Below, one piece after another: positions 18,612 through 39,498 of a DNA stretch of 64,000 nt. Under the pieces are notes generated by a model. It made no database searches. It saw nothing but the letters and a program-made list of their open reading frames with translations, and had not been told where the DNA came from. The translations under genes were made by a program, and so were the position numbers. The first letter of the stretch is position 1; the number at the start of each line of letters is the position of its first letter. Origin of the DNA: a virus (Duplodnaviria; Heunggongvirae; Uroviricota; Caudoviricetes); IMG/VR virus record IMGVR_UViG_3300018475_000095. The stretch is one strand, 5' to 3'.

Positions 18612-19272
18612 TCACAGAACCCTCTTTTGTGGTATCAATATTTACATATATAGGCGTATTATAAAGATCCCAATAATTAGCATAATCTTTCCAAGCTTTA
18701 TTCAAAATATCTTCTTTATGTTTCTCTTTTAATTTAGATTCTTTTATTATTTCTTTGAAATGAGTATAAGCAATAAAATAGTTATTTTTTGCAAAATCAT
18801 CAAAACCTAATTTGTAAGCAGACATTAATAACTTTAAATTTTTTAATGTTTCTTTTCGTGCATTAATTTCTGTGTCAGTTACATTAAATGGGTCTAAGAC
18901 TTCTAACTTACCTATTTTAAATCTATCATCTTTACCGCTAATAAATTTATAATTTAAAAATTTATCTTTAATAACAAAATCTATTTCTTTATTTATTTCT
19001 TGAGCTTCTTTTGCAAGTCTTTTAAATTCATCTAATTGAGAAGTGACTGCATAACTACAATCTTGGAAAGACCAATCATTATTGCTTTTCACATAAATTT
19101 GCCCATCTTTTATATCTAAAGTATTAGGTGGTGTTAAACCTTCTTTAATTCCTCTTGCAATACTTTCTTTTAAAGAATTATTTGATTCTAATTGTTTATC
19201 CATACTGATAATTATATCAATTAATTCTTCTCTTGTACATTCTGCTAATTTCTTCATTTCCAAATCTGTCAT
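18604..19272 (-). CDS. hypothetical protein
   Basis: 222-aa ORF. Confidence 0.55.
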   Translation of the reverse strand: MTDLEMKKLAECTREELIDIIISMDKQLESNNSLKESIARGIKEGLTPPNTLDIKDGQIYVKSNNDWSFQDCSYAVTSQLDEFKRLAKEAQEINKEIDFVIKDKFLNYKFISGKDDRFKIGKLEVLDPFNVTDTEINARKETLKNLKLLMSAYKLGFDDFAKNNYFIAYTHFKEIIKESKLKEKHKEDILNKAWKDYANYWDLYNTPIYVNIDTTKEGSVNE

Positions 19273-20252
19273 TATTTTATCTCCTTACTATGATTAAATT
19301 GGTCAGCTTCATTTAACAATTTTAAATTATTAAATTTTATATCCCCAAATACTTGTCTCCACTTCCTTTCAGATTTTTCAGTTTTAATATTATACATATG
19401 CATATGATAATTTATGTAAAATACTATATCTAATGTAGTATCATATTTAGGATAATCTTCTCCTAATTGTTCTATCATATACCAAGACATATAATTACAT
19501 AATACTTTATAAGCACCAACATTGGCATGATTATAGTAATGTGCATTAGGGTCATTTTCTTTATATGTCTGCGTATCAAGTTTGCCTATATCATGTAATA
19601 ATCCTGCTTCATATAAAACATTATCTATATCATATAATTGATTAGCAACCGATTCTAAATGTTCATGTAATAATTGAGTATGATGTTTATTATGTTGGTC
19701 AAATCCAAATGCAGATTTCATCATATTATTAAAATTTTCTACAGACTCATTATGCCCTATAATATTATACAGTAATATGTTGTCCCATCCTTCTTCATAA
19801 AAAGGTACTTCAAAAGATTCTAAATATCTTCTAACCACTTCTAATGGAACTTGATGAGAATTTATATCTTCATTTCTTTTTTTAACTCTTTCTATACATA
19901 CTTCATAAGGCGTGTTTACTATGTAACAAATCTTTTTACAAGGTTCTTTTATATTTAAAAATATTTGTTTTCTAGATTTAATTGTAATATTAGTTGCATC
20001 TAGGATAACATTTAATCCTTGTTTCAAAGCTATATTTGCTTGATTATATAAGCGTCTAAAAATAAATTCATTGTTCTCATCTGGAAATTCTTTTCTTAAT
20101 TTATCACTAGATAATACAATCATGTTATATTTCAAACTCAATTCTTCTGCAATAGTTGATTTACCGGAACCTTGCAAACCACACATCACAACCAGTTTAG
20201 GTAACCTATCTTCTGCTATGTCTAATCCTATTATTTTTATATCTTTATTCAT
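19272..20252 (-). CDS. polynucleotide kinase (P-loop) fused to an HD-domain phosphohydrolase
   Basis: Walker A GLQGSGKST at the N-terminus; HD motif HEHLESV...LLHDIGK in the C-terminal half. Confidence 0.75.
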   Translation of the reverse strand: MNKDIKIIGLDIAEDRLPKLVVMCGLQGSGKSTIAEELSLKYNMIVLSSDKLRKEFPDENNEFIFRRLYNQANIALKQGLNVILDATNITIKSRKQIFLNIKEPCKKICYIVNTPYEVCIERVKKRNEDINSHQVPLEVVRRYLESFEVPFYEEGWDNILLYNIIGHNESVENFNNMMKSAFGFDQHNKHHTQLLHEHLESVANQLYDIDNVLYEAGLLHDIGKLDTQTYKENDPNAHYYNHANVGAYKVLCNYMSWYMIEQLGEDYPKYDTTLDIVFYINYHMHMYNIKTEKSERKWRQVFGDIKFNNLKLLNEADQFNHSKEIK

Positions 20253-20733
20253 GCTGATTGCCTCTCTTTAAGAAAGTTTCATTTTGTATAGTATAATTAT
20301 CTAATTCGGCTTCAAATTTAGCTATTTTCAATAATACTCTATTTATTTTCCTCCTTGCTTTATGGAGTTTTGTTAAAGAGGTATCTAACATAACTCTTAA
20401 TTTTTCAATTTCTTTACCTCTCTCAGCAATTTCTTGGCTTGATTTTGTATATTCTCTTTCCAAATTTATATATAATTTATATAACTCGTCAGATAATGTA
20501 AACTTACTAAATGAAGATTTCAATACTAGTTTTGCTTCTAGGTCGGTTACCTTGTCTTGCAATTTTTCGTTCTCATCTCTAAAATCTTGAGCAAGTTTCA
20601 ACCACATATTATCCAAACTAATATGAGTTTTATGGTCTTTATATAATTCATTATAACAGTTGTTACATAAGCCCATTTCCCAATGGATATCTCCTGTTAA
20701 AATTTCATTTCCGCATTTAACACATTTACTCAC
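20245..20733 (-). CDS. zinc-finger / coiled-coil protein
   Basis: CVKCGNE...CNNC at the N-terminus, followed by a coiled coil. Confidence 0.5.
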   Translation of the reverse strand: MSKCVKCGNEILTGDIHWEMGLCNNCYNELYKDHKTHISLDNMWLKLAQDFRDENEKLQDKVTDLEAKLVLKSSFSKFTLSDELYKLYINLEREYTKSSQEIAERGKEIEKLRVMLDTSLTKLHKARRKINRVLLKIAKFEAELDNYTIQNETFLKRGNQHE

Positions 20734-21196
20734 TTTTCATCATCTCCTTTTTGAGTTGTTCTACTTGGTTGTCGATTATTTCTTCAATATCGTCTAAAAA
20801 TAAGTTACAATAATTCTTTCGCCAGCTATTTAATATCAACGATTTTAAATTTTTAATTCGCTCTACTGCGAATGAGATTTTATCTTGGTTGCTTTCTACA
20901 AATTTTGCAAACTTTTGATGTAGCCAATTAAACTCTTTTTCTTTCTCTGCAAGATGTTGTTTGAGTTCGTAATTCTCATTGGTTTGCTCAATAAATTGTT
21001 TTTCATAGATAGCAATTCTTCTTTTAATTTGCTCATCTTTAGTATTAGTAAATTGCACGCTTTTAAATTTTTTAAAAAATTTGGCGGTGTCTCTTGCAAG
21101 GTCGTCAACCCGTATCCCATCGCACAAAGGCCAGTTGGCTCTATCCCTATAACCTTGATAAAAATCCTCTAACTGTTTTTCGAATTCTTTATCCAT
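20726..21196 (-). CDS. hypothetical coiled-coil protein
   Basis: 156-aa ORF. Confidence 0.5.
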   Translation of the reverse strand: MDKEFEKQLEDFYQGYRDRANWPLCDGIRVDDLARDTAKFFKKFKSVQFTNTKDEQIKRRIAIYEKQFIEQTNENYELKQHLAEKEKEFNWLHQKFAKFVESNQDKISFAVERIKNLKSLILNSWRKNYCNLFLDDIEEIIDNQVEQLKKEMMKSE

Positions 21197-21240
21197 TTTT
21201 ATAATCTCCTTATTAATTATTTATATTATACAATAATTAC

Positions 21241-24070: not shown

Positions 24071-25240
24071 TTAATCTTCTTTTTCTAATTTATAACCTAA
24101 TAAATTCATTTTCTTATCTTTAGATAATTCTTTCCATTCTTGCTTTATAAAATATTCTATTGGGTCTATATCTAAATATTTAAATAGAAACCCTGATAAG
24201 TCTTTATGTTCAGTTAAAATATAATTAGCTAGTTCTTTTCGTTTTTCTTTTTCATTTTCATAGAGGAAAGTATTACTTTTAAATAACATATCATCAATAG
24301 CATCATATATTTTATTTTGCATTTCTTTATATTTAGTTTCTATTTCATTAAATAAATCAGTATATTCTGGGAATAGTCCTAAAAATTCTGATTGCTCATT
24401 CTTTTCTATAATTGAAAGAATTTTTGCTCTTGAATTAACTCCATTATTTTTTAAATAATGTGCAGCTACGTATGCAGGTGATTTAATCTTAATTCTTTTC
24501 CAATATTTATCTACTACAACAAATCCTTCTTCATCATAGCCCATATATTCTACTCTATTCAAGCATTCTTTTAAATTTTGAAAAGGAAATTGTTTTGGAG
24601 TTTTAATAAATTTACTCAACTCAAGAGAATTTGGATCTAACTCTTCAAATGCGAATTTGCATCTTACGCCAATCAAGTATAAAGCATCTTTTCTATATGG
24701 AACAACTACTCTAGATTCTGGAGTTACTAATTCAAATGTATAGCAGTATAATCTATTCAAGCATTCAAACATAGAAGAATTGTTTGGAAAAGTATAATTT
24801 GAGAGAGCTCTGTCAAATAAATCTCTAAAAGATATTCCAAAGTCTCCAACAGGAGCATTACTTGCATCTAATTCACTTGAAGTAGACACCCTCCATTTAT
24901 GTAAGTAATCATCATACCACACAAGCATCTTAGATCCATCTACTTTTTCTAATACTTTTGCACTATCCCAGTCTATCTTATCAGCAAAACTTTCTTGGAC
25001 ATTAAAAAATTTATAGAAAGATAAAGCTGCTGGCTCTAAAATATTTTTGTCTATAATAAGACCTCTACATTCTCTGCATATATCTTCATTAAAATCTGAG
25101 TTTATTTGATTATATTTTAATAATACATAATTTTCATCTTCGTTTATGAATAAATTATAAGGAGCAGCTTGTAGCAACTCTCTCCAATTTTCATGACTCT
25201 TCATAAATTGAATAGTTTTAAGCATTTTCTTCCTCCTCAT
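24071..25240 (-). CDS. RNA ligase, Rnl1-like nucleotidyltransferase family
   Basis: EKVDGS is the KxDG adenylation motif in an Rnl1-like context; 389 aa. Confidence 0.65.
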   Translation of the reverse strand: MRRKKMLKTIQFMKSHENWRELLQAAPYNLFINEDENYVLLKYNQINSDFNEDICRECRGLIIDKNILEPAALSFYKFFNVQESFADKIDWDSAKVLEKVDGSKMLVWYDDYLHKWRVSTSSELDASNAPVGDFGISFRDLFDRALSNYTFPNNSSMFECLNRLYCYTFELVTPESRVVVPYRKDALYLIGVRCKFAFEELDPNSLELSKFIKTPKQFPFQNLKECLNRVEYMGYDEEGFVVVDKYWKRIKIKSPAYVAAHYLKNNGVNSRAKILSIIEKNEQSEFLGLFPEYTDLFNEIETKYKEMQNKIYDAIDDMLFKSNTFLYENEKEKRKELANYILTEHKDLSGFLFKYLDIDPIEYFIKQEWKELSKDKKMNLLGYKLEKED

Positions 25241-26424: not shown

Positions 26425-27018
26425 TTAATAAAATTTCTTTGTGAGTAATTCTACATTTTTAAGTTCGTAGCTTGGAATCATTAATAAATCATCTAATCCT
26501 TTACCTTCATCATACAGATGCTCTAAATCTCTTTTTTCTGGAATAATTACTTGTTTATCTTCACCGATATATTTCTTTATTGCATTCACAAATGCTTTGA
26601 TTAAAGGTACTTCATAAAATCTTTCATCCATAAGTTTTCTTCTAAGTTCATAATCACATCTTTTTGGATTTGTTTTTATGTGATGACAACCTTTACTATC
26701 ATAATAATCTTCTAAATATTTAGGCTCGTCATAGTTAGTATACTCTGATTCTTTTACTATTTCATCACATTGATCATCTACTTCTGATGCAATAAATCTT
26801 AACAAGGTTTGTGCTTTATCAAAAGTACTTCTTGCGGTAAATTGATATGAGCTTGTCCACCCCATTGTCCTTCTAGAAACTTTACTTGTTATCTCTAAAT
26901 CTTGTCCTGGAATTATTTCTCTTGCATTTTTAGTTTCTTTACTTTGTTTAATAATGGCTAAGCTATGATAACTTGAACTATTAGTCTCAAATGTTTCTAA
27001 TCTTATAGTTTGTTTCAT
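26425..27018 (-). CDS. FETNSSS-family paralog 2
   Basis: N-terminal MKQTIRLETFETNSSSYHSLAII. Confidence 0.6.
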   Translation of the reverse strand: MKQTIRLETFETNSSSYHSLAIIKQSKETKNAREIIPGQDLEITSKVSRRTMGWTSSYQFTARSTFDKAQTLLRFIASEVDDQCDEIVKESEYTNYDEPKYLEDYYDSKGCHHIKTNPKRCDYELRRKLMDERFYEVPLIKAFVNAIKKYIGEDKQVIIPEKRDLEHLYDEGKGLDDLLMIPSYELKNVELLTKKFY

Positions 27019-27946: not shown

Positions 27947-29272
27947 TTAATACATTGATATATCAGTCTTATCTTCTCTTATCCACTTGAATACAGGAAA
28001 CCTTAATCCAAAAGTACCTTGTTGATTGGCTGATATTTCAAAATATTGTATTTCAATTATTTTATTTAAAATTTTATCTGGGTTATCCCAATAATACTCT
28101 CTATCCTCATCAGTCAAACCCGAACCTACATCATTTTGATAAGTAAACCCATCAGGACCAATAAATTCAATCTTTAATGCTCCAAGTTTACCTTTATTTT
28201 TTCCTGTACCTTCTTCCATACCAACAACTTTAACATCGCAGGTTTGCATTTTCTTAACTTTAAGTAAGCCTTTGCTTCTTTTACATTCATAAGGGGCATC
28301 TGCAATATTAATCATGACACCCTCACCTCCAGCAGCTGTTATAATATCTAATTGTTCAGTAATAACCTGTTTATCATCACCATAATATAAGATAGGAACG
28401 TCAACTATATGAGGTAATTTCATAAAAGTAAATTGTTTTAATAATTGCTCTTTTCTTAAAGATGCAGGCGCATTACAATAACCATTTTGAAAATCTGTAA
28501 TTGGAATCATGTCAAAAACATTGAATATAAGATTAGTTTTTTCTTTATCTGCACTAGTAACTTTTACAGTTGCCCTATATAAATCTTTACTCTCTAAATT
28601 ATCTTTGTTATCTAACAGTAGTTCACCATCATATACATAACCCATAGGTAACTGTTTTGCTTCTTCTTCAAGTTCTATCAATTGCTCTATTAACTGACCT
28701 TGTCTGGAAAAGAATTTTGCACCTGAAAAACCATCGTTAATTAAAACACATCTGACACCATCTAACTTTGGAGTCAAAATAAATTGAATCCCTTCTGGAA
28801 CAAGTTTATCTGGATTGTCAAAATATTTTTGTGCTAACATCACGTCGAAGCAAGGTATAAAATTATCACCCCAAATTTTATTTATAGTTGTTGATTGAAT
28901 ACCCAATTTAATATCTTTAGAAACTATTTTTAATATAAGTTCAGAATAATCTTTATTAGACATAGCACATTTTAAGACTTCAATTAAAGTTGAATCTGAA
29001 CCAGTGTTATTCAACTTAACATAATTAAGTAAGTCAAATATATCATAAGTTTCTGGTATATCTTCTTTACTTATAAATGAAGATTTAATTCTATCTATTT
29101 TCTTTTTTGAGATACCTGTGACAATATAGGGGTTGAATATAAAATGAACTATTTGTTTTACATATTCATTTTCTTTATATTTATCTAACACAGCTTCTTT
29201 ATATAATCTAGAATTACTAGAGTTAATTTCATTTACAAATTCTTCAAATACTTTTAAAACCATTTTATTCAA
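27947..29272 (-). CDS. ATP-dependent DNA ligase
   Basis: TPKLDGVRC (motif I, KxDGxR), EGVMIN (motif IV) and LLKVKK (motif V). Confidence 0.85.
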   Translation of the reverse strand: MNKMVLKVFEEFVNEINSSNSRLYKEAVLDKYKENEYVKQIVHFIFNPYIVTGISKKKIDRIKSSFISKEDIPETYDIFDLLNYVKLNNTGSDSTLIEVLKCAMSNKDYSELILKIVSKDIKLGIQSTTINKIWGDNFIPCFDVMLAQKYFDNPDKLVPEGIQFILTPKLDGVRCVLINDGFSGAKFFSRQGQLIEQLIELEEEAKQLPMGYVYDGELLLDNKDNLESKDLYRATVKVTSADKEKTNLIFNVFDMIPITDFQNGYCNAPASLRKEQLLKQFTFMKLPHIVDVPILYYGDDKQVITEQLDIITAAGGEGVMINIADAPYECKRSKGLLKVKKMQTCDVKVVGMEEGTGKNKGKLGALKIEFIGPDGFTYQNDVGSGLTDEDREYYWDNPDKILNKIIEIQYFEISANQQGTFGLRFPVFKWIREDKTDISMY

Positions 29273-30000: not shown

Positions 30001-30678
30001 TTACTTAATCTCCTCTACATAACACCAGCTTTGTGGGGCTTTATTTATTTGTTTATAAATACAATTTGCACCATCAAAGTCGATCCCACAAGCCCAACAA
30101 CCTTCACTTGTGTCATAATAGTTATATTTACAATCACTATTTTTATTGCAAGGATAATCATCACAATCTAAGTCTTTTTTAAATTCATTTAACGCTTTTG
30201 GTTGTTTATAAATTTTCAAATCATCTATACACCATGCGTATAAAGTTTTACCTTTACCATAATTATCTAGTTGCTCTTCAGTTAAACAAGATGCCTCTAA
30301 TTGACTTGGCATTATATCATACATTCTTTTTGGTAGCCAATCATTATAATCTCTATCAATAGTTTCAATATCATGCAATGTAAATTCTGCAACTACTTTA
30401 CCATTTAATTTTGTACCGCAACTCAAATTACCATTTACTTGCTTTCCAGTACCTTTATATAACATGAATCTTTCATCTTTAATATGATAAAAAGCATACT
30501 TAGTAGATTGAGTACAATAAATATAAACTTTACAAGGCAGATTGCATTTTGGGATTGATTTTCTGATTTCAAGAATTTTCTTACCGGTAAATATTTTCTC
30601 AACCCATTCAGGTTTAATACTAATTAAAATAGATCTCATTTTCTCTCCTCCTATCCAAAATAAACCCAAAATTTCCAA
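30001..30678 (-). CDS. ASCH/PUA-like domain protein with Cys-rich C-terminus
   Basis: SIKPEWVEKIFTGKKILEIRK resembles the ASCH N-terminal strand. Confidence 0.5.
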   Translation of the reverse strand: MEILGLFWIGGEKMRSILISIKPEWVEKIFTGKKILEIRKSIPKCNLPCKVYIYCTQSTKYAFYHIKDERFMLYKGTGKQVNGNLSCGTKLNGKVVAEFTLHDIETIDRDYNDWLPKRMYDIMPSQLEASCLTEEQLDNYGKGKTLYAWCIDDLKIYKQPKALNEFKKDLDCDDYPCNKNSDCKYNYYDTSEGCWACGIDFDGANCIYKQINKAPQSWCYVEEIK

Positions 30679-31129: not shown

Positions 31130-32299
31130 TTAATTATTTATTTCAATTATATATCTAATAGTACATTGATTACTATTATATACAATATATTCATCGTTTC
31201 TTAAATCAGCACCACCTCTAGCAAATACTGAATTACATTTTTGTGATTTAACTTGATCTTCAGTAATCCTGCCCATCCAAGATTTATAACTTTCATTATC
31301 TAAAATTCGCCATTCTTGACCTGTAGCAAATTCAAATATAGTTAGATAAGCTTTATTACTTGAGCCAGATGCCCAATAACTACCTCTTAATGATGTATAA
31401 CCAATGCTTTTTCTTGCTTTATTAGCTGCATATATACCATTACCAAACATCGAACCTGTTAAGACAACACCCTTAGGTCTAATTTTTAACCCTGTTTGCA
31501 TAATGCTTAGATAATTCTCATTTCTACTTCCATGATATAAAAGTCTTGTTTTAAGATTATCTGGATTAAATACTTTCTCAGTTTCATGATTTGTAACTCT
31601 AAATATTTTTTGATTATTAACTCTAAAATCAGTATTGGCAGCTATAAATTCTCTTTCTTCTTGCGTTGCTAATCTACAATCAAACCCAAGTGTTTCTAAT
31701 GTTATATCTTCAATTTTATTAGATTGGGTATTCAAATTAACTTGTGATTTAAGTGTGTTGAGTTTATTTTGTTCTTCTTGTAATAATTCTATAAATTCTT
31801 GTTTAGTGTAATTAGGTTTTAAGAAAAAAGCTCTTGTATCATACATTTTTCTTGGTATAGTTGTATACACCTTTTGAAGATAGTTATTTATAATATTATA
31901 AGGTAATTTTGTTAAATCCAAGTCATTCAACTCGTCTAATATTTCTTGGACTTTATTTATTTGAATATCTGAAATTGAGTCCAGTGATACTTCATAATTT
32001 GATTTGATAGACTGTTTTGCACAACTCATAAGAAATGAAATTAAATCTTTAACATCTTTATCATCTATCTTTAAAGAAGCTTTTTTAATGTCTTGAGATA
32101 AAGATTCACTTATATCAACATACCCTTTCTTTATTTTTTCATTGTATTTTTTATCCCATTGAGACATAGAGTAAGAAGTTTTTACACTTGTAGCTCCAAC
32201 TCTTCCATATTCAACTTCGAAAGTACCGTCACCGAGATCTGTCATATTGTAAAACTTATTATTATTGTTAGGTGTAACACATATTAACTTTTTATTCAT
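31130..32299 (-). CDS. PARP-like ADP-ribosyltransferase (N-terminal WGR domain plus PARP catalytic domain)
   Basis: LLYHGSRNEN...GSMFGNGIYAANKARKS matches the PARP H-G-S/Y-[FY]/E signature region. N-terminal FEVEYGRVG resembles the WGR motif. Confidence 0.8.
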   Translation of the reverse strand: MNKKLICVTPNNNNKFYNMTDLGDGTFEVEYGRVGATSVKTSYSMSQWDKKYNEKIKKGYVDISESLSQDIKKASLKIDDKDVKDLISFLMSCAKQSIKSNYEVSLDSISDIQINKVQEILDELNDLDLTKLPYNIINNYLQKVYTTIPRKMYDTRAFFLKPNYTKQEFIELLQEEQNKLNTLKSQVNLNTQSNKIEDITLETLGFDCRLATQEEREFIAANTDFRVNNQKIFRVTNHETEKVFNPDNLKTRLLYHGSRNENYLSIMQTGLKIRPKGVVLTGSMFGNGIYAANKARKSIGYTSLRGSYWASGSSNKAYLTIFEFATGQEWRILDNESYKSWMGRITEDQVKSQKCNSVFARGGADLRNDEYIVYNSNQCTIRYIIEINN

Positions 32300-32539: not shown

Positions 32540-33412
32540 TTAATTATCAACTTCTAAACTTATATATTTTAATATTGGTTTAAAATCATCTAGTGAATGA
32601 GTTTTAAGAATAAGTTTGATTGGTATATTTCTGCCATAAGTTAAATGCTTAAAACATTCTAATACTGATGCAAATGTTATCATAGCTGATTGATTTATAT
32701 CAACATCCTCTTCATCTTCTATTTCAATACATTTTATAAATTCATTATTATAATTATCTATCTCTTCCATAAATTCATTATAAACATCATCATTTACAAA
32801 TCTATTAATGTAATATAGACTAAATGTTTTAATATCATCAATCCAAAAATGCTTACCACTAGATATATAATCTATATTATCTAAATCAATAATACCTTTT
32901 TTAAATAATTTTTTAAACTCTTGGTATTCATCACCATCTACAATAACAGTGTACCTAGGGTCAAGGATAAATTCTCTCAAAGATATATTATTCTTTTCAA
33001 TATAATCAAATACATCTTCGCCTGTGTCATTTATACCAGCATATCCATAAGATTTTTCTGGTTTCTTTTTCCAAGGGTATTCTTCTTCACAATATAATTT
33101 TATTTTCTCCCTAGAACATCCTGTAAGCTCATAAACAAGATCTTCAACTTCTTTTAACCTTTCTTTTTCTTTTTTGAAACCTACATAATGTGCTACATAA
33201 TATCTTAGTTTATCTTTTGGACTAGATAAAACTTCAAAAGGTGTTCTTCCAAAAGAATGAGTATCACAACATCCAAATAGTTCAAAATCATTGCCATAAT
33301 AGTGCAATGATTTATCACTAACTGAGTAAGGTTTAACTTTCTTAGATATAACTAAACTATGCATTGAACTGCTATTTGTTTCAAAGGTTGAATTTCTAAT
33401 AAGTTGTTTCAT
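32540..33412 (-). CDS. FETNSSS-family paralog 3
   Basis: N-terminal MKQLIRNSTFETNSSSMHSLVI. Confidence 0.6.
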   Translation of the reverse strand: MKQLIRNSTFETNSSSMHSLVISKKVKPYSVSDKSLHYYGNDFELFGCCDTHSFGRTPFEVLSSPKDKLRYYVAHYVGFKKEKERLKEVEDLVYELTGCSREKIKLYCEEEYPWKKKPEKSYGYAGINDTGEDVFDYIEKNNISLREFILDPRYTVIVDGDEYQEFKKLFKKGIIDLDNIDYISSGKHFWIDDIKTFSLYYINRFVNDDVYNEFMEEIDNYNNEFIKCIEIEDEEDVDINQSAMITFASVLECFKHLTYGRNIPIKLILKTHSLDDFKPILKYISLEVDN

Positions 33413-33414
33413 AT

Positions 33415-33624
33415 TTAATAATCTCCTAAATTATCTAGTAATAAACGTTCTGCTCGTTTCATTAATCCAAGAATTGCATATACTTCATCCATACTATCTA
33501 TACTTTCAATTTTGTTTATAGCTTCATATAGTAGATCTGTTATTTTATTATGGTTATCCAAAGTTAAACTATGAGTAGAACTTGAGTTTGTTTCAAAAGT
33601 CTTATTTCTAATAAACTGTTTCAT
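33415..33624 (-). CDS. FETNSSS-family paralog 4 (short, 69 aa)
   Basis: N-terminal MKQFIRNKTFETNSSSTHSLTL; lies in tandem with paralog 3. Confidence 0.5.
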   Translation of the reverse strand: MKQFIRNKTFETNSSSTHSLTLDNHNKITDLLYEAINKIESIDSMDEVYAILGLMKRAERLLLDNLGDY

Positions 33625-33625: not shown

Positions 33626-34264
33626 TTATAATATATCCTTTAAATCTTCATATTTTATTTTAACAATAATTCTATTCCCGCATCTATCTTTCAATTCAAA
33701 TTTAGGTCTTGCAACAAGTCCTTCAATCAAGTGCCCATTCTTTGCTATAGCACTTCTTCTTTCTGTTTTAACATAGTTGATCCCTCTACTTAATGGACCT
33801 TCAAATAAAATAGGTACAATATCTAATTTAAAGTAATTCGCTATATCTTCTACAGATTCTCTTGGTTGATAATTATCTCCTATTTGAACATCAAATAAAA
33901 TAAAATCTACATCATTTCTATAAGCTCCACCTGATTGAATTTTAGGTCCATATCCTTCACCATATAAGGTTACTTCCATTTCACCAAATTTTTGTTCAAA
34001 TAGTTCTTCATTAGCATTACCACCGAATAATTCATTTAGTCTATTTACTAAAAATGCAGGCATTGATGCATTATCTGTTCTTCCACCAAACGTTACTTTA
34101 TGACCATCCCAATGAACTCTAACATTAGTACCATCCACTTTTTCAGTAAATTGCCAAGTTAAATCTTTTAAAAATTCTATAGTTGGGTTTCTATATTTAT
34201 CTATAGTCTTTTTAGTTTCTTCATCTCTTGCATAAATTGCTTCAATTTTATTATATTTTCTCAT
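33626..34264 (-). CDS. minimal nucleotidyltransferase-type ligase (Rnl2-like)
   Basis: EKVDGTNVRV (KxDG), EGLVARP (motif IV-like) and KIKYEDL (motif V-like). Confidence 0.6.
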   Translation of the reverse strand: MRKYNKIEAIYARDEETKKTIDKYRNPTIEFLKDLTWQFTEKVDGTNVRVHWDGHKVTFGGRTDNASMPAFLVNRLNELFGGNANEELFEQKFGEMEVTLYGEGYGPKIQSGGAYRNDVDFILFDVQIGDNYQPRESVEDIANYFKLDIVPILFEGPLSRGINYVKTERRSAIAKNGHLIEGLVARPKFELKDRCGNRIIVKIKYEDLKDIL

Positions 34265-34821: not shown

Positions 34822-35232
34822 TTATTTTAAAGCATCCATAGCTTCATTTGCTAATTTATCTGCCCTGTTATTAAATTCATTATCTGAGTGTCCTTTTACT
34901 TTTATGAATCTAATATCTTTAAATTTATTTATATATGTATACAGTTCTTCCCATAAATCTAAATTAGCTTTTTTATTCCAATTTAAATTAATTGTACTAA
35001 CTACATATTGGCTATCTGAATATACTTCAATAGGAATATCATATACTTTTAATGCTTTTAACCCTTCTATCACAGATAAAATTTCCATTTTATTATTAGT
35101 TGTATTTCGAAAAGCATTTTTTAGTTCTTTATATTGATCTTGGTACTGAAGCACTATCCCATAACCACCTATGTTTTCTGCAAATTGATTTCCTCTACAA
35201 GCACCATCAGCATATATCTTAATTTTCTCCAT
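34822..35232 (-). CDS. rnhA: ribonuclease HI
   Basis: YADGACRGN, MEILSVIEGL, SDSQYV and KGHSDNEFNNRADKLA match RNase H catalytic blocks. Confidence 0.85.
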   Translation of the reverse strand: MEKIKIYADGACRGNQFAENIGGYGIVLQYQDQYKELKNAFRNTTNNKMEILSVIEGLKALKVYDIPIEVYSDSQYVVSTINLNWNKKANLDLWEELYTYINKFKDIRFIKVKGHSDNEFNNRADKLANEAMDALK

Positions 35233-36490
35233 TTAAGTATCTCCTTGTAATTTCAGATAAAGTTTCTATTGTGTTTAGTTGGGAATTCTCCATAACTTTG
35301 CCTAATAAGAAATTAAGAACCTTACCTATCTTCTCACCACTTATATCAAATGTAGATTGAAGAAAGTGCCCATCTATTGCCAAGTCTTGTAATCTATATG
35401 GTTGACTTGTAATTTCTGACAAATCTATTCCTTCTATTTTTGTGTAAATACCCAAATACTTGCATACGTATGCATGTTCAAATTTATTGAATAGTTGCTT
35501 GATTGTTAGGACAATATCTTGTTGCTGAACATCTTCCATAAACTTTGACATCTTATAATAGCTAATAACCTCTTTGATTTGTTGGTTACTATATTTATAT
35601 AACCTCATCCAAATTTCTGCATCTATCATTGACTTATACTTATTCAATATTGAATACAACTTTAACATAGGTGGGTTGTCATTATCTATATCTATGATGA
35701 CCTGGTTACTACCCCATTTACTTACTTTGTTTTGAGGTATCTCAAATATCTCTGCTAGTGTTTCTATTGTTGAATTTAAAGTTTCAGAATTACCTTTTGA
35801 ATATTCTAATATCTTCTTAACTTCTTCAGTAATTCTTTCTTTTGATACATTCTTTAAGAGACTACCAGTACCCGCTATAACATTGCTTGTTGCATTCTCT
35901 AACTCAAAATTATACTTACAAGCAAATCTAATGCCCCTTAAAATTCTCAAAGCATCTTCTTTTATTCTAACCTGTGGGTCTCCTACTGCTTTAACTATTT
36001 TATTTTTAATATCTTCAACACCATTATGTGGGTCTACTATACCTACTAATGGGTTATAAGCAATAGCATTCATAGTAAAATCTCTTCTATCTAAATCATC
36101 TATAATAGATTCACCAAAAGTTACATTATTTGGTCTTCTACCATCAGTGTAATCGCTATCATATCTAAATGTGGTTATTTCATAAATACCTGCAAGATGT
36201 TCATATTTATTTAATTTATATTTTTCTATAACTTCAATAGTCATAGTGCCATATTTTTCTCCTGTTGGAATAACTTTAAAATAAATATCCATATCACTCT
36301 TGTGAAAACTATTATCTTCAAATAGTTTCTTTGTTTCAGCAGGTAAAGCACTTGTTGCTATATCCCAATCTTTTGGTTCAATACCTAATATAGAATCTCT
36401 AATAGCGCCACCAACTGCATATGCTGCATAACCATTTTCATTTAACATGTTTATTAGTAATTCAACATATTTTGGTAATTTTATCTCCAT
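35219..36490 (-). CDS. cca: tRNA nucleotidyltransferase (CCA-adding enzyme / poly(A) polymerase family)
   Basis: YAVGGAIRD...DWDIAT is the class II head-domain motif. Confidence 0.8.
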   Translation of the reverse strand: MEIKLPKYVELLINMLNENGYAAYAVGGAIRDSILGIEPKDWDIATSALPAETKKLFEDNSFHKSDMDIYFKVIPTGEKYGTMTIEVIEKYKLNKYEHLAGIYEITTFRYDSDYTDGRRPNNVTFGESIIDDLDRRDFTMNAIAYNPLVGIVDPHNGVEDIKNKIVKAVGDPQVRIKEDALRILRGIRFACKYNFELENATSNVIAGTGSLLKNVSKERITEEVKKILEYSKGNSETLNSTIETLAEIFEIPQNKVSKWGSNQVIIDIDNDNPPMLKLYSILNKYKSMIDAEIWMRLYKYSNQQIKEVISYYKMSKFMEDVQQQDIVLTIKQLFNKFEHAYVCKYLGIYTKIEGIDLSEITSQPYRLQDLAIDGHFLQSTFDISGEKIGKVLNFLLGKVMENSQLNTIETLSEITRRYLNGEN

Positions 36491-36491: not shown

Positions 36492-36923
36492 TTAATCGTC
36501 CTCTCTTACAATTAATCTAACAATTTCACAATTAAATAATTGGTCAATATCGATATGATGTTGAGCATCTTCTTCTGTTTTAAATTTTAATACAGTAGGA
36601 TCTGCAATATTAGTGTAATTTGTACCTAAACCATACTCATTTATAAATTCACCTGTATCTCTATTTTTAATAACATACATATACATGTCTGTAAACCAGA
36701 ATTTAATTCTATTTGGAATTACAATTAATACATTGCATTTATCACAACATCTATCTCCAGAAGTAGTAATTAATGGTCTTATGTCATTTCCATAATTATC
36801 ATATTCAACATTGCAAAAACAGCATCTTCCTTTCTTTTTCATATTACTCTCCTTTTCTATATCCTGCATTCCATAATGCAATAGCAATTCTAAGTGAATC
36901 ATTATCTTCTGGATCATATTCAT
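36492..36923 (-). CDS. Cys-rich hypothetical protein
   Basis: CCFCN and CCDKCN. Confidence 0.5.
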   Translation of the reverse strand: MNMIQKIMIHLELLLHYGMQDIEKESNMKKKGRCCFCNVEYDNYGNDIRPLITTSGDRCCDKCNVLIVIPNRIKFWFTDMYMYVIKNRDTGEFINEYGLGTNYTNIADPTVLKFKTEEDAQHHIDIDQLFNCEIVRLIVREDD

Positions 36924-37404
36924 TTTCTTCTACAAGATTTGCAATTTCAAGTATCTCTTCTTCGCATGCCATAAAGTAATCTTTATCGATAATAACTAAC
37001 TTATCTTTATATCTTTTATCATAGGTTGGAAACCACATCTCCCTACGCTCTTGCAAGTTTTTTCTTAAATCTTCTTTCTTTGGCCAATATTCACTGTAAG
37101 GTATATAAGTTTCTACCCGCTTTTGAAATTCAATTTCAAATTGTTCTTTTGATACATCTTTACCATTTATTTTATAGATAAACTTATTTTTAGATTCAAA
37201 ATAAATTATATTATATTTTTTATCATAATAAAATGATTTTTCATCATATTTAAAATATAATTTATCATCAAATTCTGTTATAAAAGTAAAATAAGGTATA
37301 TGATAGCCTTCTGTTAATTTAACATCTTTATTATCTTTTACTCGATAGATATTACCCTCTATCAATTTTAAATATATATTTTCATCTTTATATTCATAAT
37401 TCAT
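36844..37404 (-). CDS. hypothetical protein
   Basis: 186-aa ORF. Confidence 0.5.
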   Translation of the reverse strand: MNYEYKDENIYLKLIEGNIYRVKDNKDVKLTEGYHIPYFTFITEFDDKLYFKYDEKSFYYDKKYNIIYFESKNKFIYKINGKDVSKEQFEIEFQKRVETYIPYSEYWPKKEDLRKNLQERREMWFPTYDKRYKDKLVIIDKDYFMACEEEILEIANLVEENEYDPEDNDSLRIAIALWNAGYRKGE

Positions 37405-37407
37405 ATA

Positions 37408-37602
37408 TTATTCTCCTTTATCTGGTGTTCTATCATCAAAATCAAGTTTGGTTAATAAATCAATCAATTTATTTAAATGTTCTTCATTTAATTTATCAAA
37501 GTTAAGAGTTTCTACTTTCTCACTAATGAAATTCCAAAACTCTACCTCTACCCCATATTCACCAAAACCTGTTTGGTATACTTTATAATTATCATGAAAC
37601 AT
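37408..37602 (-). CDS. hypothetical protein
   Basis: 64-aa ORF. Confidence 0.4.
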   Translation of the reverse strand: MFHDNYKVYQTGFGEYGVEVEFWNFISEKVETLNFDKLNEEHLNKLIDLLTKLDFDDRTPDKGE

Positions 37603-37673
37603 ATTTATTTTCCTCCTTTAATTATAAATATTATATATTATTGAAAAAGAAAAGTAAACTATTTTTCATTAGT

Positions 37674-37865
37674 TTACTCAAAATCTTTTATTTCATATTC
37701 ATCTTTAGATAATATTATTACATTAGGATCTAAACTCATCTCACCTTTTTGTAATTTATTTGCACATTCTTTACAACAAATTCTACCATCTGGAGTTGCA
37801 AATATCTGATGTTTACAATCTCCTCCACAGAAATAGCACTCTTGCCCATAAAACTTCTGCTCCAT
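37674..37865 (-). CDS. small zinc-ribbon protein
   Basis: CYFCGGDC...CCKEC. Confidence 0.45.
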   Translation of the reverse strand: MEQKFYGQECYFCGGDCKHQIFATPDGRICCKECANKLQKGEMSLDPNVIILSKDEYEIKDFE

Positions 37866-38410
37866 TATTTTTCGGTACCTCTATTTTGAAATTTTTTATT
37901 ATAACCACATGGATTAAATTCTGTGCACACGCCTCCTCTATATGCACAAAGTGGAACAAGTAAATCTTTGAACTCTGGATTGACCTCAATTACTTGTCTG
38001 CAGATTTCTTTTACTACATCTCTTGTTTCAGGTGAGGCTTGGTTACATAATCTTTTATGAGCCAAGAATAATAGTTCTTGTGCATTGATGGACATAATAT
38101 GAGATACAATCGCACCTTGTGGTTTTTCTGCTCTTGGTGTTGCATCATTTGTTCTATCATCTCTTTGTGTTTGCACATAATGATTAACCCCAATATGATG
38201 TCTTACAAGATGAACTGATACATAATAAGGTATCTCCATTTTAATACCAAACCATAATTCTCTTATAGGTGAATGTTCTGCCATAAGTAATTTTACTTTC
38301 CAAGCATCCGTTGCATCTTTTGTAGATGTTTTACCTACCGTGTTGAGCGTACATTTTCGAACATATCTCCAATCTTCTTTGGTTGGATGTTTTAAAATTT
38401 CTACTTTCAT
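37865..38410 (-). CDS. divergent ThyX-like (flavin-dependent thymidylate synthase-like) protein
   Basis: EHSPIRELWFGIKMEIPYYVSVHLVRHHIGVNHYVQTQR parallels the ThyX RHR...S...R block, but reads RHH and is only 181 aa. Confidence 0.5.
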   Translation of the reverse strand: MKVEILKHPTKEDWRYVRKCTLNTVGKTSTKDATDAWKVKLLMAEHSPIRELWFGIKMEIPYYVSVHLVRHHIGVNHYVQTQRDDRTNDATPRAEKPQGAIVSHIMSINAQELLFLAHKRLCNQASPETRDVVKEICRQVIEVNPEFKDLLVPLCAYRGGVCTEFNPCGYNKKFQNRGTEK

Positions 38411-39498
38411 TATAGTATGATCTCCTCCAATGGTTCTTTGTATTTTAATACAGTATCAGTTATAACTTTACTGTTTACATCGGTGACAAATTTATTCAAT
38501 TCATCATAATTAGGTGTTTTTTGCAATGTAGAATGTCTCTCTGCTAATTGTAATCTTTTATTTAATCCATTTAAAGTATTTGTAAATTCTGCTGTTAAAT
38601 GACCATCTTTTATAAACTTACCATTTCTGATATCCAATAGAAAATCCCTATCATCTTCTCTATAAGAATTTAATACACCTTTCTCTAGTATCTCACAACA
38701 AGTTATGATTAGTCTAAATAAGTGCATGCAATGTTTATTCAATTTTTCCATAGTTGGTTTAGTATTTCTTTGATTTATTTTATTATAACTTTTTTCTATA
38801 GTTAATATATCATTTAAAGAACTTCTTACTAGGTCTATTGGTGCTTGTTTTATATTACAGTCAATATAAAGTTTATCTAAATCTGCAGTAACATTTATAC
38901 AGCCGTCTGCAAATAATTTGTTTGATTCAGATAGTTTCATCATAGCAACATCCATTGTTTGCTTTATATGTTTTACTTTTTCTTCTTCAGTATATTCAGT
39001 ACTTGCTAAAGCATTTTCAATTTTTCTTAATTGCGCTACTGCGTAACCATTAAATGTTTGATAACATTTTTTACTTAATAATAAAGGTAAACTATCAAGT
39101 AAGTCATGCCCAATTTCATTAAATATAAGATAATGTTTGAAACCTAACATTTCAATCACATTTGGGTTATTTGCCATAGCAAGTTTGATAAATTGATTAA
39201 ACTCATAAATAGTTGTGTCTGTGCTCGAATCTTCTCTTTGTTTAAAAGTTTTTAACCCAATCAATTCATCTTTAGTGGGTAGCATAACTCCTCTTATATC
39301 AATATCACTACCTTCTACATTAGTACCATATCCATGAGAACCTGATATAACTAAGAAGCATAATCTATCTTTATATTCTTCTAGCCATCTATACTCAGGT
39401 TTACTTATTATTTCTTTTATATTCAACATACATTTATCCTTTCTAATTTTATCAGCAACTAATTTGGCTAGAGTTCTTACTTCATCTATATTAGACAT
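38410..39498 (-). CDS. pol-beta superfamily minimal nucleotidyltransferase
   Basis: GSHGYGTNVEGSDIDI is the GS...DxD NTase motif. Confidence 0.65.
   Translation of the reverse strand: MSNIDEVRTLAKLVADKIRKDKCMLNIKEIISKPEYRWLEEYKDRLCFLVISGSHGYGTNVEGSDIDIRGVMLPTKDELIGLKTFKQREDSSTDTTIYEFNQFIKLAMANNPNVIEMLGFKHYLIFNEIGHDLLDSLPLLLSKKCYQTFNGYAVAQLRKIENALASTEYTEEEKVKHIKQTMDVAMMKLSESNKLFADGCINVTADLDKLYIDCNIKQAPIDLVRSSLNDILTIEKSYNKINQRNTKPTMEKLNKHCMHLFRLIITCCEILEKGVLNSYREDDRDFLLDIRNGKFIKDGHLTAEFTNTLNGLNKRLQLAERHSTLQKTPNYDELNKFVTDVNSKVITDTVLKYKEPLEEIIL

Follow-up and report, generated by a model that had tools for sequence, protein, structure and literature searches.

Bacteriophage T4 is the paradigm of heal-and-seal RNA repair, and inventories of such genes are available for large phages (PMC7824862). 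T4 itself encodes RlaP, a family whose members add one to two nucleotides to damaged RNA 3' ends and restore aminoacylation of the repaired tRNA (PMC12776372). HD-Pnk of Runella is a proven end-healing enzyme with HD and kinase domains, and its gene adjoins a ligase gene (Munir and Shuman 2017, as described in PMC6097658). The parts described below, including rare 'calcineurin-like and HD-like' 3'-phosphatases, are listed for large phages (Iyer et al. 2021; PMC7824862).

The window, which is the whole stretch of 64 kb analysed in this study, is phage-like, has about 27% GC and carries all its genes on the minus strand. The same genome is represented by JGI contig Ga0257090_10000440 (154,398 bp). 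A close relative of these uncultured gut Clostridia-associated phages was absent from INPHARED and IMG/VR. Our analysis indicates that the window probably carries a phage module for repair and maintenance of RNA, mainly tRNA, of the heal-and-seal type, with conserved synteny and spread out by insertions. Domain and motif searches recovered every gene named in the initial annotation in its place and with intact catalytic motifs, and its enzyme inventory was borne out, except that RNase H does not count as RNA repair (Table 1). An ATP-dependent DNA ligase and a WGR+PARP protein were not part of that annotation. About 25 of the approximately 34 ORFs in the span of about 20 kb are unnamed or match only PHROG families of unknown function; these are interspersed among the repair genes, which are distributed over several apparent transcription units, and this arrangement counts against the module.

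Table 1. Features of the repair region and the associated RNA genes in the window
Feature	Coordinates	Strand	Evidence
Kinase-HD, 326 aa	19272..20252	-	N-terminal polynucleotide 5'-kinase-type P-loop, C-terminal HD phosphohydrolase
Rnl1-like ATP-dependent RNA ligase, 389 aa, C-terminal region included	24071..25240	-	phrog_562, TIGR02308, 2c5u
ATP-dependent DNA ligase	27947-29272	-	Pfam search
WGR+PARP protein	31130-32299	-	Pfam search
212-aa RNA ligase, nucleotidyltransferase domain only (Rnl2/Rnl5 clade)	33626..34264	-	PF09414, 67 bits
RNase HI	34822-35232	-	Domain search
Class II tRNA nucleotidyltransferase, CCA-adding type, 423 aa	35219..36490	-	PolyA_pol head
Small Cys-rich (CxxC..CCxxC) protein	36492..36923	-	Immediately upstream of CCA enzyme
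RlaP (RNA-ligase-associated Pol-beta nucleotidyltransferase), 362 aa	38410..39498	-	PF10127
tRNA-shaped RNA	57330..57426	-	ARAGORN; Rfam tRNA, 38 bits
Two tandem hairpin RNAs (together 57612..57740)	57680-57740 and 57612-57674	-	Model R1, 54.3 and 44.6 bits
Ro60-like protein, 501 aa	57746..59251	-	Pfam DUF2828+DUF7788; predicted fold
Leader hairpin RNA of Ro60-like gene	59252..59293	-	Model R1, 39.3 bits, E 2.7e-6
Lambda-phosphatase/ApaH-type metallophosphoesterase, 246 aa	59422..60162	-	Metallophos, 2.7e-16
tRNA gene array (15 complete tRNAs, 60705-63555; one partial, 63771-63827)	60705..63827	-	ARAGORN, Rfam

Analysis of the CCA-adding enzyme revealed a PolyA_pol head (107 bits, 9e-31), RNA-binding and tRNA_NucTran2_2 domains, a score of 247 bits against the CCA tRNA nucleotidyltransferase model NF009814 (cut-off 290) and the motifs GGAIRD27, DWD41-43, RRD135 and EDALR178. 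RlaP scored 66 bits against PF10127 (cut-off 23) and 8.5e-50 against phrog_388, contains the motifs GSHGYGT53 and SDIDI64, and is 57-59% identical to its counterparts in the relatives L010 and L014. The small Cys-rich protein gave no match in the family search; its L010 homologue is 43% identical and is likewise flanked by RlaP and the CCA enzyme, and we tentatively consider it an accessory of the repair set. The 3'-CCA is encoded in all 15 array tRNAs, so the CCA enzyme would be dispensable for their maturation, which fits a role in repair. In contrast to these 15, the tRNA-shaped RNA (anticodon loop CUUCAAA with anticodon UCA, long variable arm, discriminator G) has no encoded CCA. Its stems covary, with the element found in six of seven close loci and partially deleted in L015.

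The Ro60-like protein consists of a helical repeat ring and a vWA domain with a MIDAS motif, whose residues D290-x-S292-x-S294 are invariant among its homologues. A TROVE match was not found at the sequence level, where Pfam gives DUF2828 and DUF7788 instead; the Ro60-like identity was borne out by the predicted fold. The top 11 Foldseek matches in the PDB to the AF2 model (pLDDT 86.4, pTM 0.85) are all Ro60/TROVE proteins over the full length (E 1.6e-7 to 2.6e-4; TM 0.39-0.57, with 0.52-0.57 in the best nine), including 9kop, 2i91, 1yvr, phage phiLo Ro60 (9l5y), Rsr (2nvo) and a human structure (9nen). In relatives, the Ro60-like gene adjoins kinase-HD (L104, L043 and L056) or Rnl1 (L081). 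A hairpin RNA with covarying stems (AAGRY..RCAGCAA..RYCUUG), for which Rfam has no matching entry, is present in three copies in the window, all beside the Ro60-like gene, and is enriched in a strand-specific manner around Ro60-like homologues. The leader copy, which was outside the training set of model R1, encloses the Shine-Dalgarno sequence AAGGAG and ends 1 nt before the Ro60-like ATG; it also occurs in L015, L114 and L115, and in L104 with a compensatory stem. The stop codon is followed by a TGTATAATA box and then by the tandem copies, whose conservation in L015-L017 and L113-L115 includes compensatory changes. This hairpin RNA may be a Y-RNA-like partner of the Ro60-like protein, and it constitutes a new item alongside the Ro60-like gene, previously unlisted.

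The metallophosphoesterase is a possible second 3'-end-healing enzyme. It shows weak matches to the bacterial Pnkp phosphatase domain (TIGR04075, 4e-6) and to phrog_8238 and contains the motifs DVHG10, GDLFDRG40 and GNHE70. Its gene lies upstream of the Ro60-like gene in five relatives, directly adjacent in L113 and with one to two intervening genes in L015, L016, L017 and L115. In L013 a homologue occurs downstream of kinase-HD, two genes and about 1 kb away.

These genes could also serve housekeeping in which no host nuclease takes part, namely processing, maturation and quality control of phage tRNAs and transcripts together with tRNA 3'-end maintenance. This explanation, which we regard as unlikely, would accommodate a genome shared with the 15-tRNA array, the frequent location of the Ro60-like gene beside tRNA genes (within 3 kb at 25 of 49 loci), the quality-control function of Ro60 in cells (PMC4201824) and the CCA-less RNA, which would need CCA addition. 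However, the array tRNAs already encode CCA, normal tRNA maturation does not make the 5'-OH or cyclic-phosphate ends for which kinase, phosphoesterase and ligase would be required, and the pairing of kinase and ligase is the signature of break repair. The array tRNAs are moreover complete and contiguous and give no sign of introns with ARAGORN at default settings (run without intron search) and Rfam, which do not exclude introns.

The Rnl1-like ligase matched phrog_562 (8e-46, residues 34-374), TIGR02308 (1e-12) and the T4 Rnl1 structure 2c5u (E 1.4e-5), while the Pfam search gave no match for it. Its motifs ECRG57, YKFFN76, EKVDGS98 (residues 98-103, with Lys99), FELV169, EEGFVV237 and IKIKS250 align to those of T4 Rnl1, and copies adjoining kinase-HD in relatives are 43-58% identical to it. 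The 212-aa ligase matched TIGR02306 (DraRnl type; 2e-9, model positions 145-333), TIGR02307 (Rnl2; 9e-7) and the T4 Rnl2 structure 1s68 (3.5e-4), with the motifs EKVDGTN41 (EKVDGTNV, residues 41-48), YGEGYG101, FILFDV121, EGLVAR181 and VKIKY201. With 68-70% identity in L010 and L014, it is the most conserved protein of the repair set. Full nick sealing by T4 Rnl2 reportedly needs an extra domain (a finding attributed to Ho et al. 2004), and the absence of this domain from the 212-aa ligase counts against the heal-and-seal explanation. The initial annotation had named loss of nucleotidyltransferase motifs on alignment as a finding that would speak against its reading; since both ligases retain every such motif, the reading stands on this point. 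Its inclusion of RNase H in RNA repair is rejected, as this is a replication-type enzyme whose slot holds Thg1 in L010.

The presence of RNase H, the DNA ligase and the WGR+PARP protein among the repair genes raises the question of DNA-end repair, in which kinase-HD, the ligases and their neighbours would act on DNA, healing and sealing nicks and breaks that arise from replication or host nucleases. L013 and Tsamsa-like phages also have a DNA ligase in the vicinity of Rnl1 and kinase-HD, and Runella HD-Pnk is described as a DNA/RNA enzyme, making DNA ends possible substrates (PMC6097658). This explanation nevertheless has little chance of being correct: the ligases adjacent to kinase-HD belong to RNA-ligase families (Rnl1, PF09414) and not to DNA ligases, the partners RlaP and CCA enzyme, with Thg1 in L010, are RNA-specific, and conservation of PARP was not found in the compared relatives.

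Comparison of gene order was carried out with relatives carrying the five core repair genes, which are gut phage contigs of about 140-210 kb. The five families are shared at 36-70% protein identity. The order in L010 (a 154.9-kb contig) is RlaP, small protein, CCA enzyme, Thg1, a 170-aa protein, 212-aa ligase, Rnl1, a YafQ-like gene and kinase-HD; the repair genes there lie within 10 kb, and the window has the same order over 20 kb. The same five genes occupy about 11 kb in L014, where the 212-aa ligase is upstream of RlaP. An ATP-dependent RNA ligase adjoins kinase-HD in many independent genomes: an Rnl1 ORF overlaps or abuts it in L013, L099, L108, L110 and Bacillus Tsamsa-like phages, and in the Konateibacter chromosome an OB+PF09414 (Rnl5-type) RNA ligase precedes it. 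At the level of sequence, the five repair genes are thus a conserved module and not a chance collection, because the same five recur in relatives, with Rnl1 abutting kinase-HD in several lineages. That they are unrelated accessory genes in a large phage's early or metabolic region is very improbable on this evidence, although they are spread over 20 kb and numerous unrelated ORFs and several promoter-like boxes intervene.

Kinase-HD is predicted to be an RNA end-healing enzyme and belongs to a common family (1293 clusters at E<=1e-30). Pfam assigned AAA_33 to residues 20-150 (E 5e-24) and HD to residues 200-250 (6.7e-5). When the family profile was compared with the PDB, the kinase part matched the Clostridium thermocellum Pnkp kinase (4gp7, 1.9e-18), Pnkp1 (4xrp, 3e-11) and T4 Pnk (1e-3), and the HD part matched the HD domain of the Aquifex CC-adding enzyme (3wfp, 8e-4). 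Among 34 homologues (46-89% identity), G25, S29, G30, K31, S32, D50, R53, D85 and R126 are invariant in the kinase and H191, H198, H220, D221, H238, H242, H283 and D317 in the HD domain. L-seryl-tRNA(Sec) kinase and Pnkp kinase give near-equal scores for the kinase domain, which counts against the end-healing reading. Nevertheless, a PSTK-like kinase acting on the serylated UCA tRNA-shaped RNA in a recoding or modification pathway deserves almost no credence, for although PSTK is the best NCBIfam match (TIGR03574, 5e-17), PSTK structures match over about 200 residues (2e-16) and close relatives conserve the UCA RNA with its discriminator G and long variable arm, the match stays far under the PSTK threshold (62 against 290 bits), the Pnkp kinase domain gives the better score, and an association of kinase-HD with RNA ligases recurs in many genomes (Bacillus phages and a bacterial chromosome among them, mostly with the kinase surroundings being examined), including L015, where the UCA element carries a deletion. 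Nor did the ORFs show signs of TGA recoding, as TGA is the stop codon of 6 of 73 and no read-through fusions occur.

For heal-and-seal repair we infer the following course, including the activities, the substrates and a counter-defence purpose. A ribonuclease of the host or of a competitor would cut tRNA or another translation RNA, leaving a 2',3'-cyclic phosphate or 3'-phosphate and a 5'-OH; the initial annotation suggested PrrC, RloC, PtuAB and PARIS as candidate systems. The kinase domain of kinase-HD would phosphorylate the 5'-OH, and its HD domain, perhaps with the metallophosphoesterase, would open or remove the 3' phosphate. RlaP could restore one or two nucleotides lost on the 3' side of the break. 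The Rnl1-like ligase would seal breaks of the anticodon-loop type and the 212-aa ligase core a different class, whereas trimmed 3' ends would be rebuilt by the CCA enzyme. Damaged or misfolded RNA ends may be bound by the Ro60-like protein, and tRNAs beyond repair would be replaced from the phage's own tRNA genes.

Comparison with cellular systems revealed both shared and distinct features. Runella slithyformis HD-Pnk likewise joins an HD phosphoesterase to a P-loop polynucleotide kinase, with its gene beside, and often overlapping, that of an ATP-dependent ligase; the domain order is opposite, as the window protein, of predicted activity, has the kinase at the N-terminus and HD at the C-terminus, and phages have Rnl1 as the partner ligase, Konateibacter an Rnl5-type one. 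Domain searches found no Tpt1 or methyltransferase-HIT neighbours of kinase-HD. The Clostridium thermocellum Pnkp-Hen1 system provides the closest solved relative of the window kinase (4gp7), and its lambda-phosphatase-type domain resembles the separate metallophosphoesterase. However, kinase, phosphatase and ligase form one polypeptide there, with a Hen1 methyltransferase partner, and are separate genes in the window, where domain searches found no Hen1. Bacterial Ro60 (Rsr)-Y RNA modules (Salmonella rsr-yrlBA-rtcBA, Deinococcus Rsr-Yrn1) share the Ro60 fold with vWA/MIDAS, same-strand small structured RNAs no more than about 2 kb away, some of which contain tRNA-like parts, and a genomic link to RNA repair enzymes. 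The associated RNA here is a different hairpin, with neither a YrlA match in Rfam nor a GNCGAA motif found for the window RNAs, and the repair partners are ATP-dependent ligases and not RtcB.

Among phages, the Bacillus Tsamsa-like group, distant in sequence and from a different host phylum branch, encodes the same kinase(N)-HD(C) protein (for example vB_BanS_Skywalker gp121-gp122; 27% identity at 94% coverage). Its gene overlaps that of an Rnl1-type 'tRNA ligase', and genes for a DNA ligase and for another RNA ligase are found within 5 kb; inspection of 19 kb showed no RlaP, CCA enzyme or Ro60-like protein. The same parts are reported from jumbo phages (Iyer et al. 2021, PMC7824862; Burroughs and Aravind 2016), namely many tRNAs, Rnl1, Rnl2, polynucleotide kinase-phosphoesterase (HAD, or rarely calcineurin-like and HD-like), RlaP, a CCA-adding enzyme and a ROT/TROVE protein that has a tRNA-like partner, whereas the present genome, at about 154 kb, is under the jumbo threshold and its TROVE-like protein is of the DUF2828 family. 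The initial annotation was right in its inventory, RNase H aside, and in its heal-and-seal reading. The set is not unusual, since large phages are described as having this combination (PMC7824862) and T4 has RlaP (PMC12776372). Heal-and-seal tRNA repair is the best explanation, but it is an already established reading. T4 (Pnkp with Rnl1, Rnl2, RlaP/NrdC.11 and phage tRNAs) shares with the window a healing enzyme with 5'-kinase and 3'-phosphoesterase, a ligase of the Rnl1 family in which all essential residues are present, a second ligase of the PF09414 family, RlaP and a tRNA cluster. As had been proposed, the fusion is distinct from T4 Pnkp, with HD in place of HAD (DxDxT); the second ligase is without the Rnl2 C-terminal domain, the genes are scattered across 20 kb, the others lying 18-40 kb away, and the CCA-adding enzyme and the Ro60-like protein are additional in the window.

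Every gene named in the initial annotation was found where it had been placed, on Pfam, PHROG, motif and fold evidence. Its RNA repair interpretation is partly supported, being right in substance but wrong in counting RNase H as a member of the kit; RNase H is a DNA-replication enzyme, and its slot is held by Thg1 in the related gut phage contig L010. Heal-and-seal repair of RNA is the best-supported reading of the predicted gene set. Repair genes represent five of about 34 ORFs between 19.3 and 39.5 kb, and most of the remaining ORFs have no recognisable family. An ATP-dependent DNA ligase and a WGR-PARP protein, neither mentioned earlier, are also encoded in this region. The G+C content of the window is about 27% and essentially all of its genes lie on the minus strand.

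Features of the window considered in the analysis, with the evidence for each
Feature	Position	Strand	Evidence or remarks
Kinase-HD	19272-20252	minus	AAA_33 P-loop kinase, residues 20-150; HD/HDIG, residues 186-317
Conserved orphan, 643 aa	21241-23172	minus	Between kinase-HD and Rnl1
Rnl1-like ligase	24071-25240	minus	phrog_562, 8e-46; all essential residues of T4 Rnl1 present in alignment
ATP-dependent DNA ligase	27947-29272	minus
WGR + PARP catalytic domain protein	31130-32299	minus	Apparent His-Tyr-Glu triad: YHGS, GNGIY, DEYIVY
Core ligase, 212 aa	33626-34264	minus	PF09414, 67.3 bits (cut-off 27); motifs I, III, IIIa, IV, V
RNase HI	34822-35232	minus
Class II CCA-adding-type enzyme	35219-36490	minus	PolyA_pol head, 107 bits; motifs A-D
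RlaP	38410-39498	minus	PF10127, 66 bits (cut-off 23); Pol-beta G53-S54, D65/D67
tRNA-shaped RNA	57330-57426	minus	Anticodon UCA, discriminator G, long variable arm, no encoded CCA
Hairpin RNA motif copies	59252-59293, 57680-57740, 57612-57674	minus
Ro60-like protein	57746-59251	minus	Pfam DUF2828 + DUF7788 only; Ro60 match at fold level
Metallophosphoesterase, lambda-phosphatase/ApaH type	59422-60162	minus	DxH, GDxxDRG, GNHE signature
tRNA array	60.7-63.8 kb
TGTATAATA boxes	60696, 57752, 52085, 48452, 39928, 21232, 17634	minus
TTTACT-17-TATAAT	37658, 32506, 26340, 24042, 21253	minus

The kinase-HD protein aligns to Pnkp kinases and has the P-loop 5'-kinase, general-base aspartate and arginine clamps of the T4-type Pnkp kinase. 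Alignment of 34 homologues (46-89% identity) revealed invariant residues in both domains: the P-loop GSGKS29-32, general-base Asp50, Arg53, Asp85 and Arg126 in the kinase, and the metal ligands H191, H198, H220-D221, H238, H242, H283 and D317 in the HD domain. The best match of the family profile was the kinase domain of Clostridium thermocellum Pnkp (1.9e-18), followed by PSTK (2e-16) and then by Capnocytophaga Pnkp1, mammalian PNKP and T4 Pnk; its HD part matched the corresponding domain of a class II tRNA nucleotidyltransferase. When 1.84 billion representative proteins were searched with a profile, 1293 clusters were obtained at E<=1e-30, and nearly all of the best 150 are full-length proteins of ~300 residues. 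Judged from these clusters the order is not rare, and such proteins are already annotated as polynucleotide kinase in GenBank phages.

Both ligases named in the initial annotation keep the nucleotidyltransferase motifs. The T4 RnlA residues used as the criterion for the Rnl1-like protein were the motif I lysine (KxDGS), R54, K75/F77, E159, E227/G228 and K240/K242; ECRG57, YKFFN76, EKVDGS98, FELV169, EEGFVV237 and IKIKS250 of the window protein align to these essential residues. A PF09511 search of this protein gave no match at E<=0.01 and TIGR02308 scored 48 bits, below its cut-off of 242; homologues 48-52% identical to it carry precomputed PF09511 matches. On these alignments the protein is a divergent but clear member of the Rnl1 family. 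The 212-aa ligase keeps motifs I-V, including K42, E103, F124-D125, E181 and K202/K204. It lacks both the C-terminal domain of Rnl2 and the N-terminal OB domain of Rnl5, with 40 residues before motif I and the chain ending (residue 212) directly after motif V. No conserved partner was found among the ORFs beside it in the relatives compared. A 185-aa ORF overlapping its start was rejected as the missing ligase domain, having no family match and not being kept in relatives.

The head of the CCA enzyme carries GGAIRD27, DWD41-43, RRD135 and EDALR178 at the positions of the GGxxRD, DxD, RRD and EDxxR criterion. As to full CCA addition versus CC-adding, A-adding or poly(A) polymerase activity, the NF009814 model scored 247 bits, short of its equivalog cut-off of 290, and PcnB models match too. 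All 15 array tRNAs encode the 3'-CCA in the DNA; the CCA enzyme would therefore not be needed for their maturation, which favours a repair role. Thg1, Tpt1, RtcB, NADAR and peptidyl-tRNA hydrolase (Pth) were not found in the rest of the window. The inspected relatives do not share the WGR-PARP protein. The 643-aa orphan matched no family, nor any fold from a fair model (pLDDT 78.7); its homologue in L010 sits just upstream of RlaP.

Several other genes were observed in and around the region. Four paralogous ORFs (17677-18231, 26425-27018, 32540-33412 and 33415-33624, minus) share the N-terminal motif (R/K)NxTFETNSSSxHSL; copies also occur in L010 and in L013, another compared locus, with no family match. 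A 181-aa protein (37865-38410, minus) has a stop overlapping the start region of RlaP and is matched by the ThyX (Thy1) model over the model's C-terminal 50 residues only. An SPFH/Band-7 protein (40112-41158, minus) lies just past RlaP, and a 47% identical copy is found in L098 (2029-2994), 1 kb from kinase-HD. A 225-aa protein (30001-30678, minus) with a Cys-rich C-terminus gives a marginal match to ASCH (RNA-binding/PUA-like; E 0.0017) and matches phrog_3136 (function unknown). A GIY-YIG endonuclease domain is inserted in frame at residues 480-555 of the 1031-aa anaerobic ribonucleotide reductase NrdD (44531-47626, minus).

That the five repair genes belong together is shown by the gene sets of the gut phage relatives L010 and L014, the abutment of Rnl1 and kinase-HD, and a ligase-kinase pairing in Konateibacter. 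In L010 (154.9 kb) the order is RlaP, a small Cys-rich protein, CCA enzyme, Thg1, a 170-aa protein, 212-aa ligase, Rnl1, a YafQ-like protein and kinase-HD; these genes follow the window order within a span of 10 kb, with proteins 39-68% identical. L014 holds the five core genes in 11 kb, but with the 212-aa ligase upstream of RlaP. Rnl1 overlaps or abuts kinase-HD in four compared loci (L013, L099, L108 and L110) and in Bacillus Tsamsa-like phages, which also have a DNA ligase and another RNA ligase close by. On the Konateibacter massiliensis chromosome an OB+PF09414 ligase gene is followed by kinase-HD. The window arrangement looks like an ancestral compact module split where the 643-aa orphan, PARP, DNA ligase and paralogous small genes were inserted. 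In the window, 18 kb separates the Ro60-like gene from the main cluster; elsewhere this gene is the immediate neighbour of kinase-HD (L104, L043 and L056) or Rnl1 (L081). In five close relatives the metallophosphoesterase gene is found shortly upstream of the Ro60-like gene, and a homologue is near kinase-HD in L013. The L010 gene in the RNase H slot (4048-4878) encodes Thg1, a tRNA 5'-end polymerase, and that in the Rnl1/kinase-HD interval (9659-9991) a YafQ-like endoribonuclease toxin.

Recurrent promoter-like boxes (AGTTTACT..TGTATAATA) occur at intergenic positions on the minus strand of the window, and their positions suggest that the repair genes would be transcribed in about six separate units. 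A generic promoter/terminator scan of the AT-rich window was uninformative (157 sites against 149 expected).

A residue-for-residue identical kinase-HD protein is encoded on 154.4-kb metagenomic contigs (JGI 3300024268 and 3300029705). The relatives are contigs of 138-208 kb from human gut, rumen and similar samples, some of them binned as uncultured Clostridium or Clostridia, and the source is probably a large, uncultured, Clostridia-infecting phage. Megablast of the 20-kb region against INPHARED gave no match and thus no near relative among deposited phage genomes; IMG/VR scans for kinase-HD and with a conserved non-coding 19-mer also gave none.

The Ro60-like identity proposed in the initial annotation proved right at the level of fold. 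The protein does not match Pfam TROVE (PF05731), and phmmer and profile searches against the PDB returned noise only, with no Ro60. Foldseek comparison of its AlphaFold model (pLDDT 86.4) with the PDB gave Ro60/TROVE proteins as all of the best 11 matches, full length and with E down to 1.6e-7, Thermus phage phiLo Ro60 among them. The MIDAS DxSxS motif is invariant among the homologues, and the predicted structure has the Ro60/TROVE fold, a helical-repeat ring with a C-terminal vWA domain containing MIDAS. No Rfam match to YrlA or Y_RNA was found at 56200-60800 even at E<=10, and no GNCGAA motif of YrlA was seen there on reading the sequence by eye. On this search and reading, no Y RNA of the YrlA type (GNCGAA motif, tRNA-like module) is recognised beside the Ro60-like gene; a different conserved hairpin is present.

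In this hairpin (AAGRYNN..RCAGCAA..NNRYCUUG), so far undescribed, the closing stem covaries and the RCAGCAA box is invariant; nothing in Rfam 15 matches it. The hairpin also occurs in the compared loci L003, L015-L017, L104 and L113-L115 and in 36 of L018-L097. In 80 distant DUF2828 loci (473.6 kb, most sampled only ~3 kb to each side of the Ro60-like gene) the 5' motif appears 100 times on the gene strand and twice on the opposite strand; 49 motifs have a perfect 6-bp 3' arm within 200 nt, compared with 3.5 expected from shuffling, and 17 stem variants are represented. A single 5' motif was found in 227.5 kb of related phage DNA that carries no Ro60-like gene. The hairpins were gathered with a pairing filter, which biases the pairing percentages of the first six pairs; the seventh pair, unused in detection, is paired in 31 of 31 aligned hairpins with four pair types. 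A covariance model of the motif, run on the whole window with filters off, identified three sites only (E 1e-9, 2e-7 and 3e-6), the third of which was not in the training set. Among 27 loci the model gave 16 matches, all on the gene strand and all in loci with a Ro60-like gene, and it matched none of 17 control loci. Comparative evidence of this kind makes the hairpin and its specific tie to DUF2828 Ro60-like genes well supported.

The Shine-Dalgarno sequence of the Ro60-like gene lies inside the copy at 59252-59293, which stops one base short of the ATG. A leader hairpin over the ribosome-binding site is also present in L015, L114 and L115, and in the distant L104 with a compensatory stem. 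T-arm-like sequences are found inside some of the hairpins (L017, L115), and a 7-nt CUUGAAA loop similar to an anticodon loop inside others; these features recall the tRNA-like modules of YrlA (PMC4201824). A natural hypothesis is that the hairpin is a candidate cognate Y-RNA analogue and autoregulatory operator of DUF2828-type Ro60 proteins. We tentatively propose, at somewhat less than even odds, that the protein binds the two downstream hairpin RNAs as Y-RNA analogues and autoregulates through the leader copy, forming a phage Ro-Y-like RNP alongside the heal-and-seal enzymes; binding, autoregulation and a repair role of these RNAs are all inferred. Through the DUF2828-specific hairpin, what this large Ro60-like family binds can be tested directly.

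After its stop codon, the Ro60-like gene is followed by a conserved TGTATAATA box and by a non-coding stretch of 553 nt (57193-57745) that is kept in six close relatives. The stretch contains, in order, two hairpins (consensus 5'-AAGAYNNN-(U)ACAGCAA...NNNRUCUUGU-3'), a conserved middle, a UCA tRNA-shaped RNA and two terminator-like hairpins. The middle (57430-57610, minus; ~170 nt, GUCCUAUACC..GAUAGGGUGUAGCGUUCCAC..GCAAACGUUUGG) matched no RNA family. A downstream locus of ~550 nt as a universal feature was rejected, the next ORF following within 150 nt in most of the 80 distant loci, where hairpins are mostly upstream of the Ro60-like gene. The tRNA-shaped RNA is kept with covarying stems in close relatives and is partly deleted in L015; its variable-arm loop (CUCCAAAA) nearly repeats its anticodon loop (CUUCAAAA). 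TGA recoding was rejected as its explanation, with TGA ending six of 73 ORFs and zero read-through fusions in the window.

In the proposed pathway, the kinase domain of kinase-HD would phosphorylate 5'-OH ends and its HD domain, possibly with the metallophosphoesterase, would remove 2',3'-cyclic or 3' phosphates. RlaP, of a family characterised in PMC12776372, may restore one or two lost nucleotides; Rnl1 would seal anticodon-loop breaks and the core ligase another class of break, and the CCA enzyme would rebuild 3' ends. These activities are predicted from homology to T4 Pnkp, Rnl1 and Rnl2, CthPnkp, Runella HD-Pnk and RlaP. Defences that cleave tRNA, among them PrrC, RloC, PARIS, retron PtuAB and Cas13, are now recognised as one of the main lines of bacterial immunity, from which phages are known to escape by means of their own tRNAs (PMC10264068, PMC11555353, PMC12409363). 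By analogy with T4 against PrrC and with recent work on tRNA-targeting immunity, we infer that the kit may serve counter-defence.

To our knowledge, three parts of the kit have no characterised counterpart: the very widespread kinase(N)-HD(C) enzyme, the ligase reduced to its catalytic core and the DUF2828-type Ro60 homologue. The window contributes a well-defined repair kit of abundant, uncultured gut phages. Kinase-HD, the core-only ligase, and the DUF2828 Ro60-like protein together with its hairpin RNA make worthwhile, concrete targets for biochemistry. The gene combination itself is already known and ordinary for large phages, and the picture of phage RNA repair is unchanged: large phages have been catalogued with many tRNAs, Rnl1 and Rnl2, polynucleotide kinase and phosphoesterase, RlaP, a CCA-adding enzyme and a ROT/TROVE protein with a tRNA-like partner, the 3'-phosphatase being 'calcineurin-like and HD-like' in a few phages (PMC7824862). 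Bacterial Pnkp-Hen1 is a kinase-phosphatase-ligase fusion with a Hen1 methyltransferase partner, whereas the window has separate genes and no Hen1 or other methyltransferase family among the ORFs scanned. In T4-type Pnkp the 3'-phosphatase is a HAD domain (DxDxT); the window enzyme differs, as initially noted, in having no such acylphosphatase domain and HD/HDIG as its C-terminal half instead. It resembles the characterised Runella HD-Pnk which, as described in PMC6097658, joins an HD phosphoesterase and a Pnk kinase in one polypeptide beside an ATP-dependent ligase gene. A ligase gene likewise adjoins kinase-HD in L013, L099, L108, L110, L001 and L103, and lies 3.8 kb off in the window. The Runella order is HD(N)-kinase(C), and the kinase(N)-HD(C) order of the window protein is the reverse of that in the only characterised HD-Pnk.
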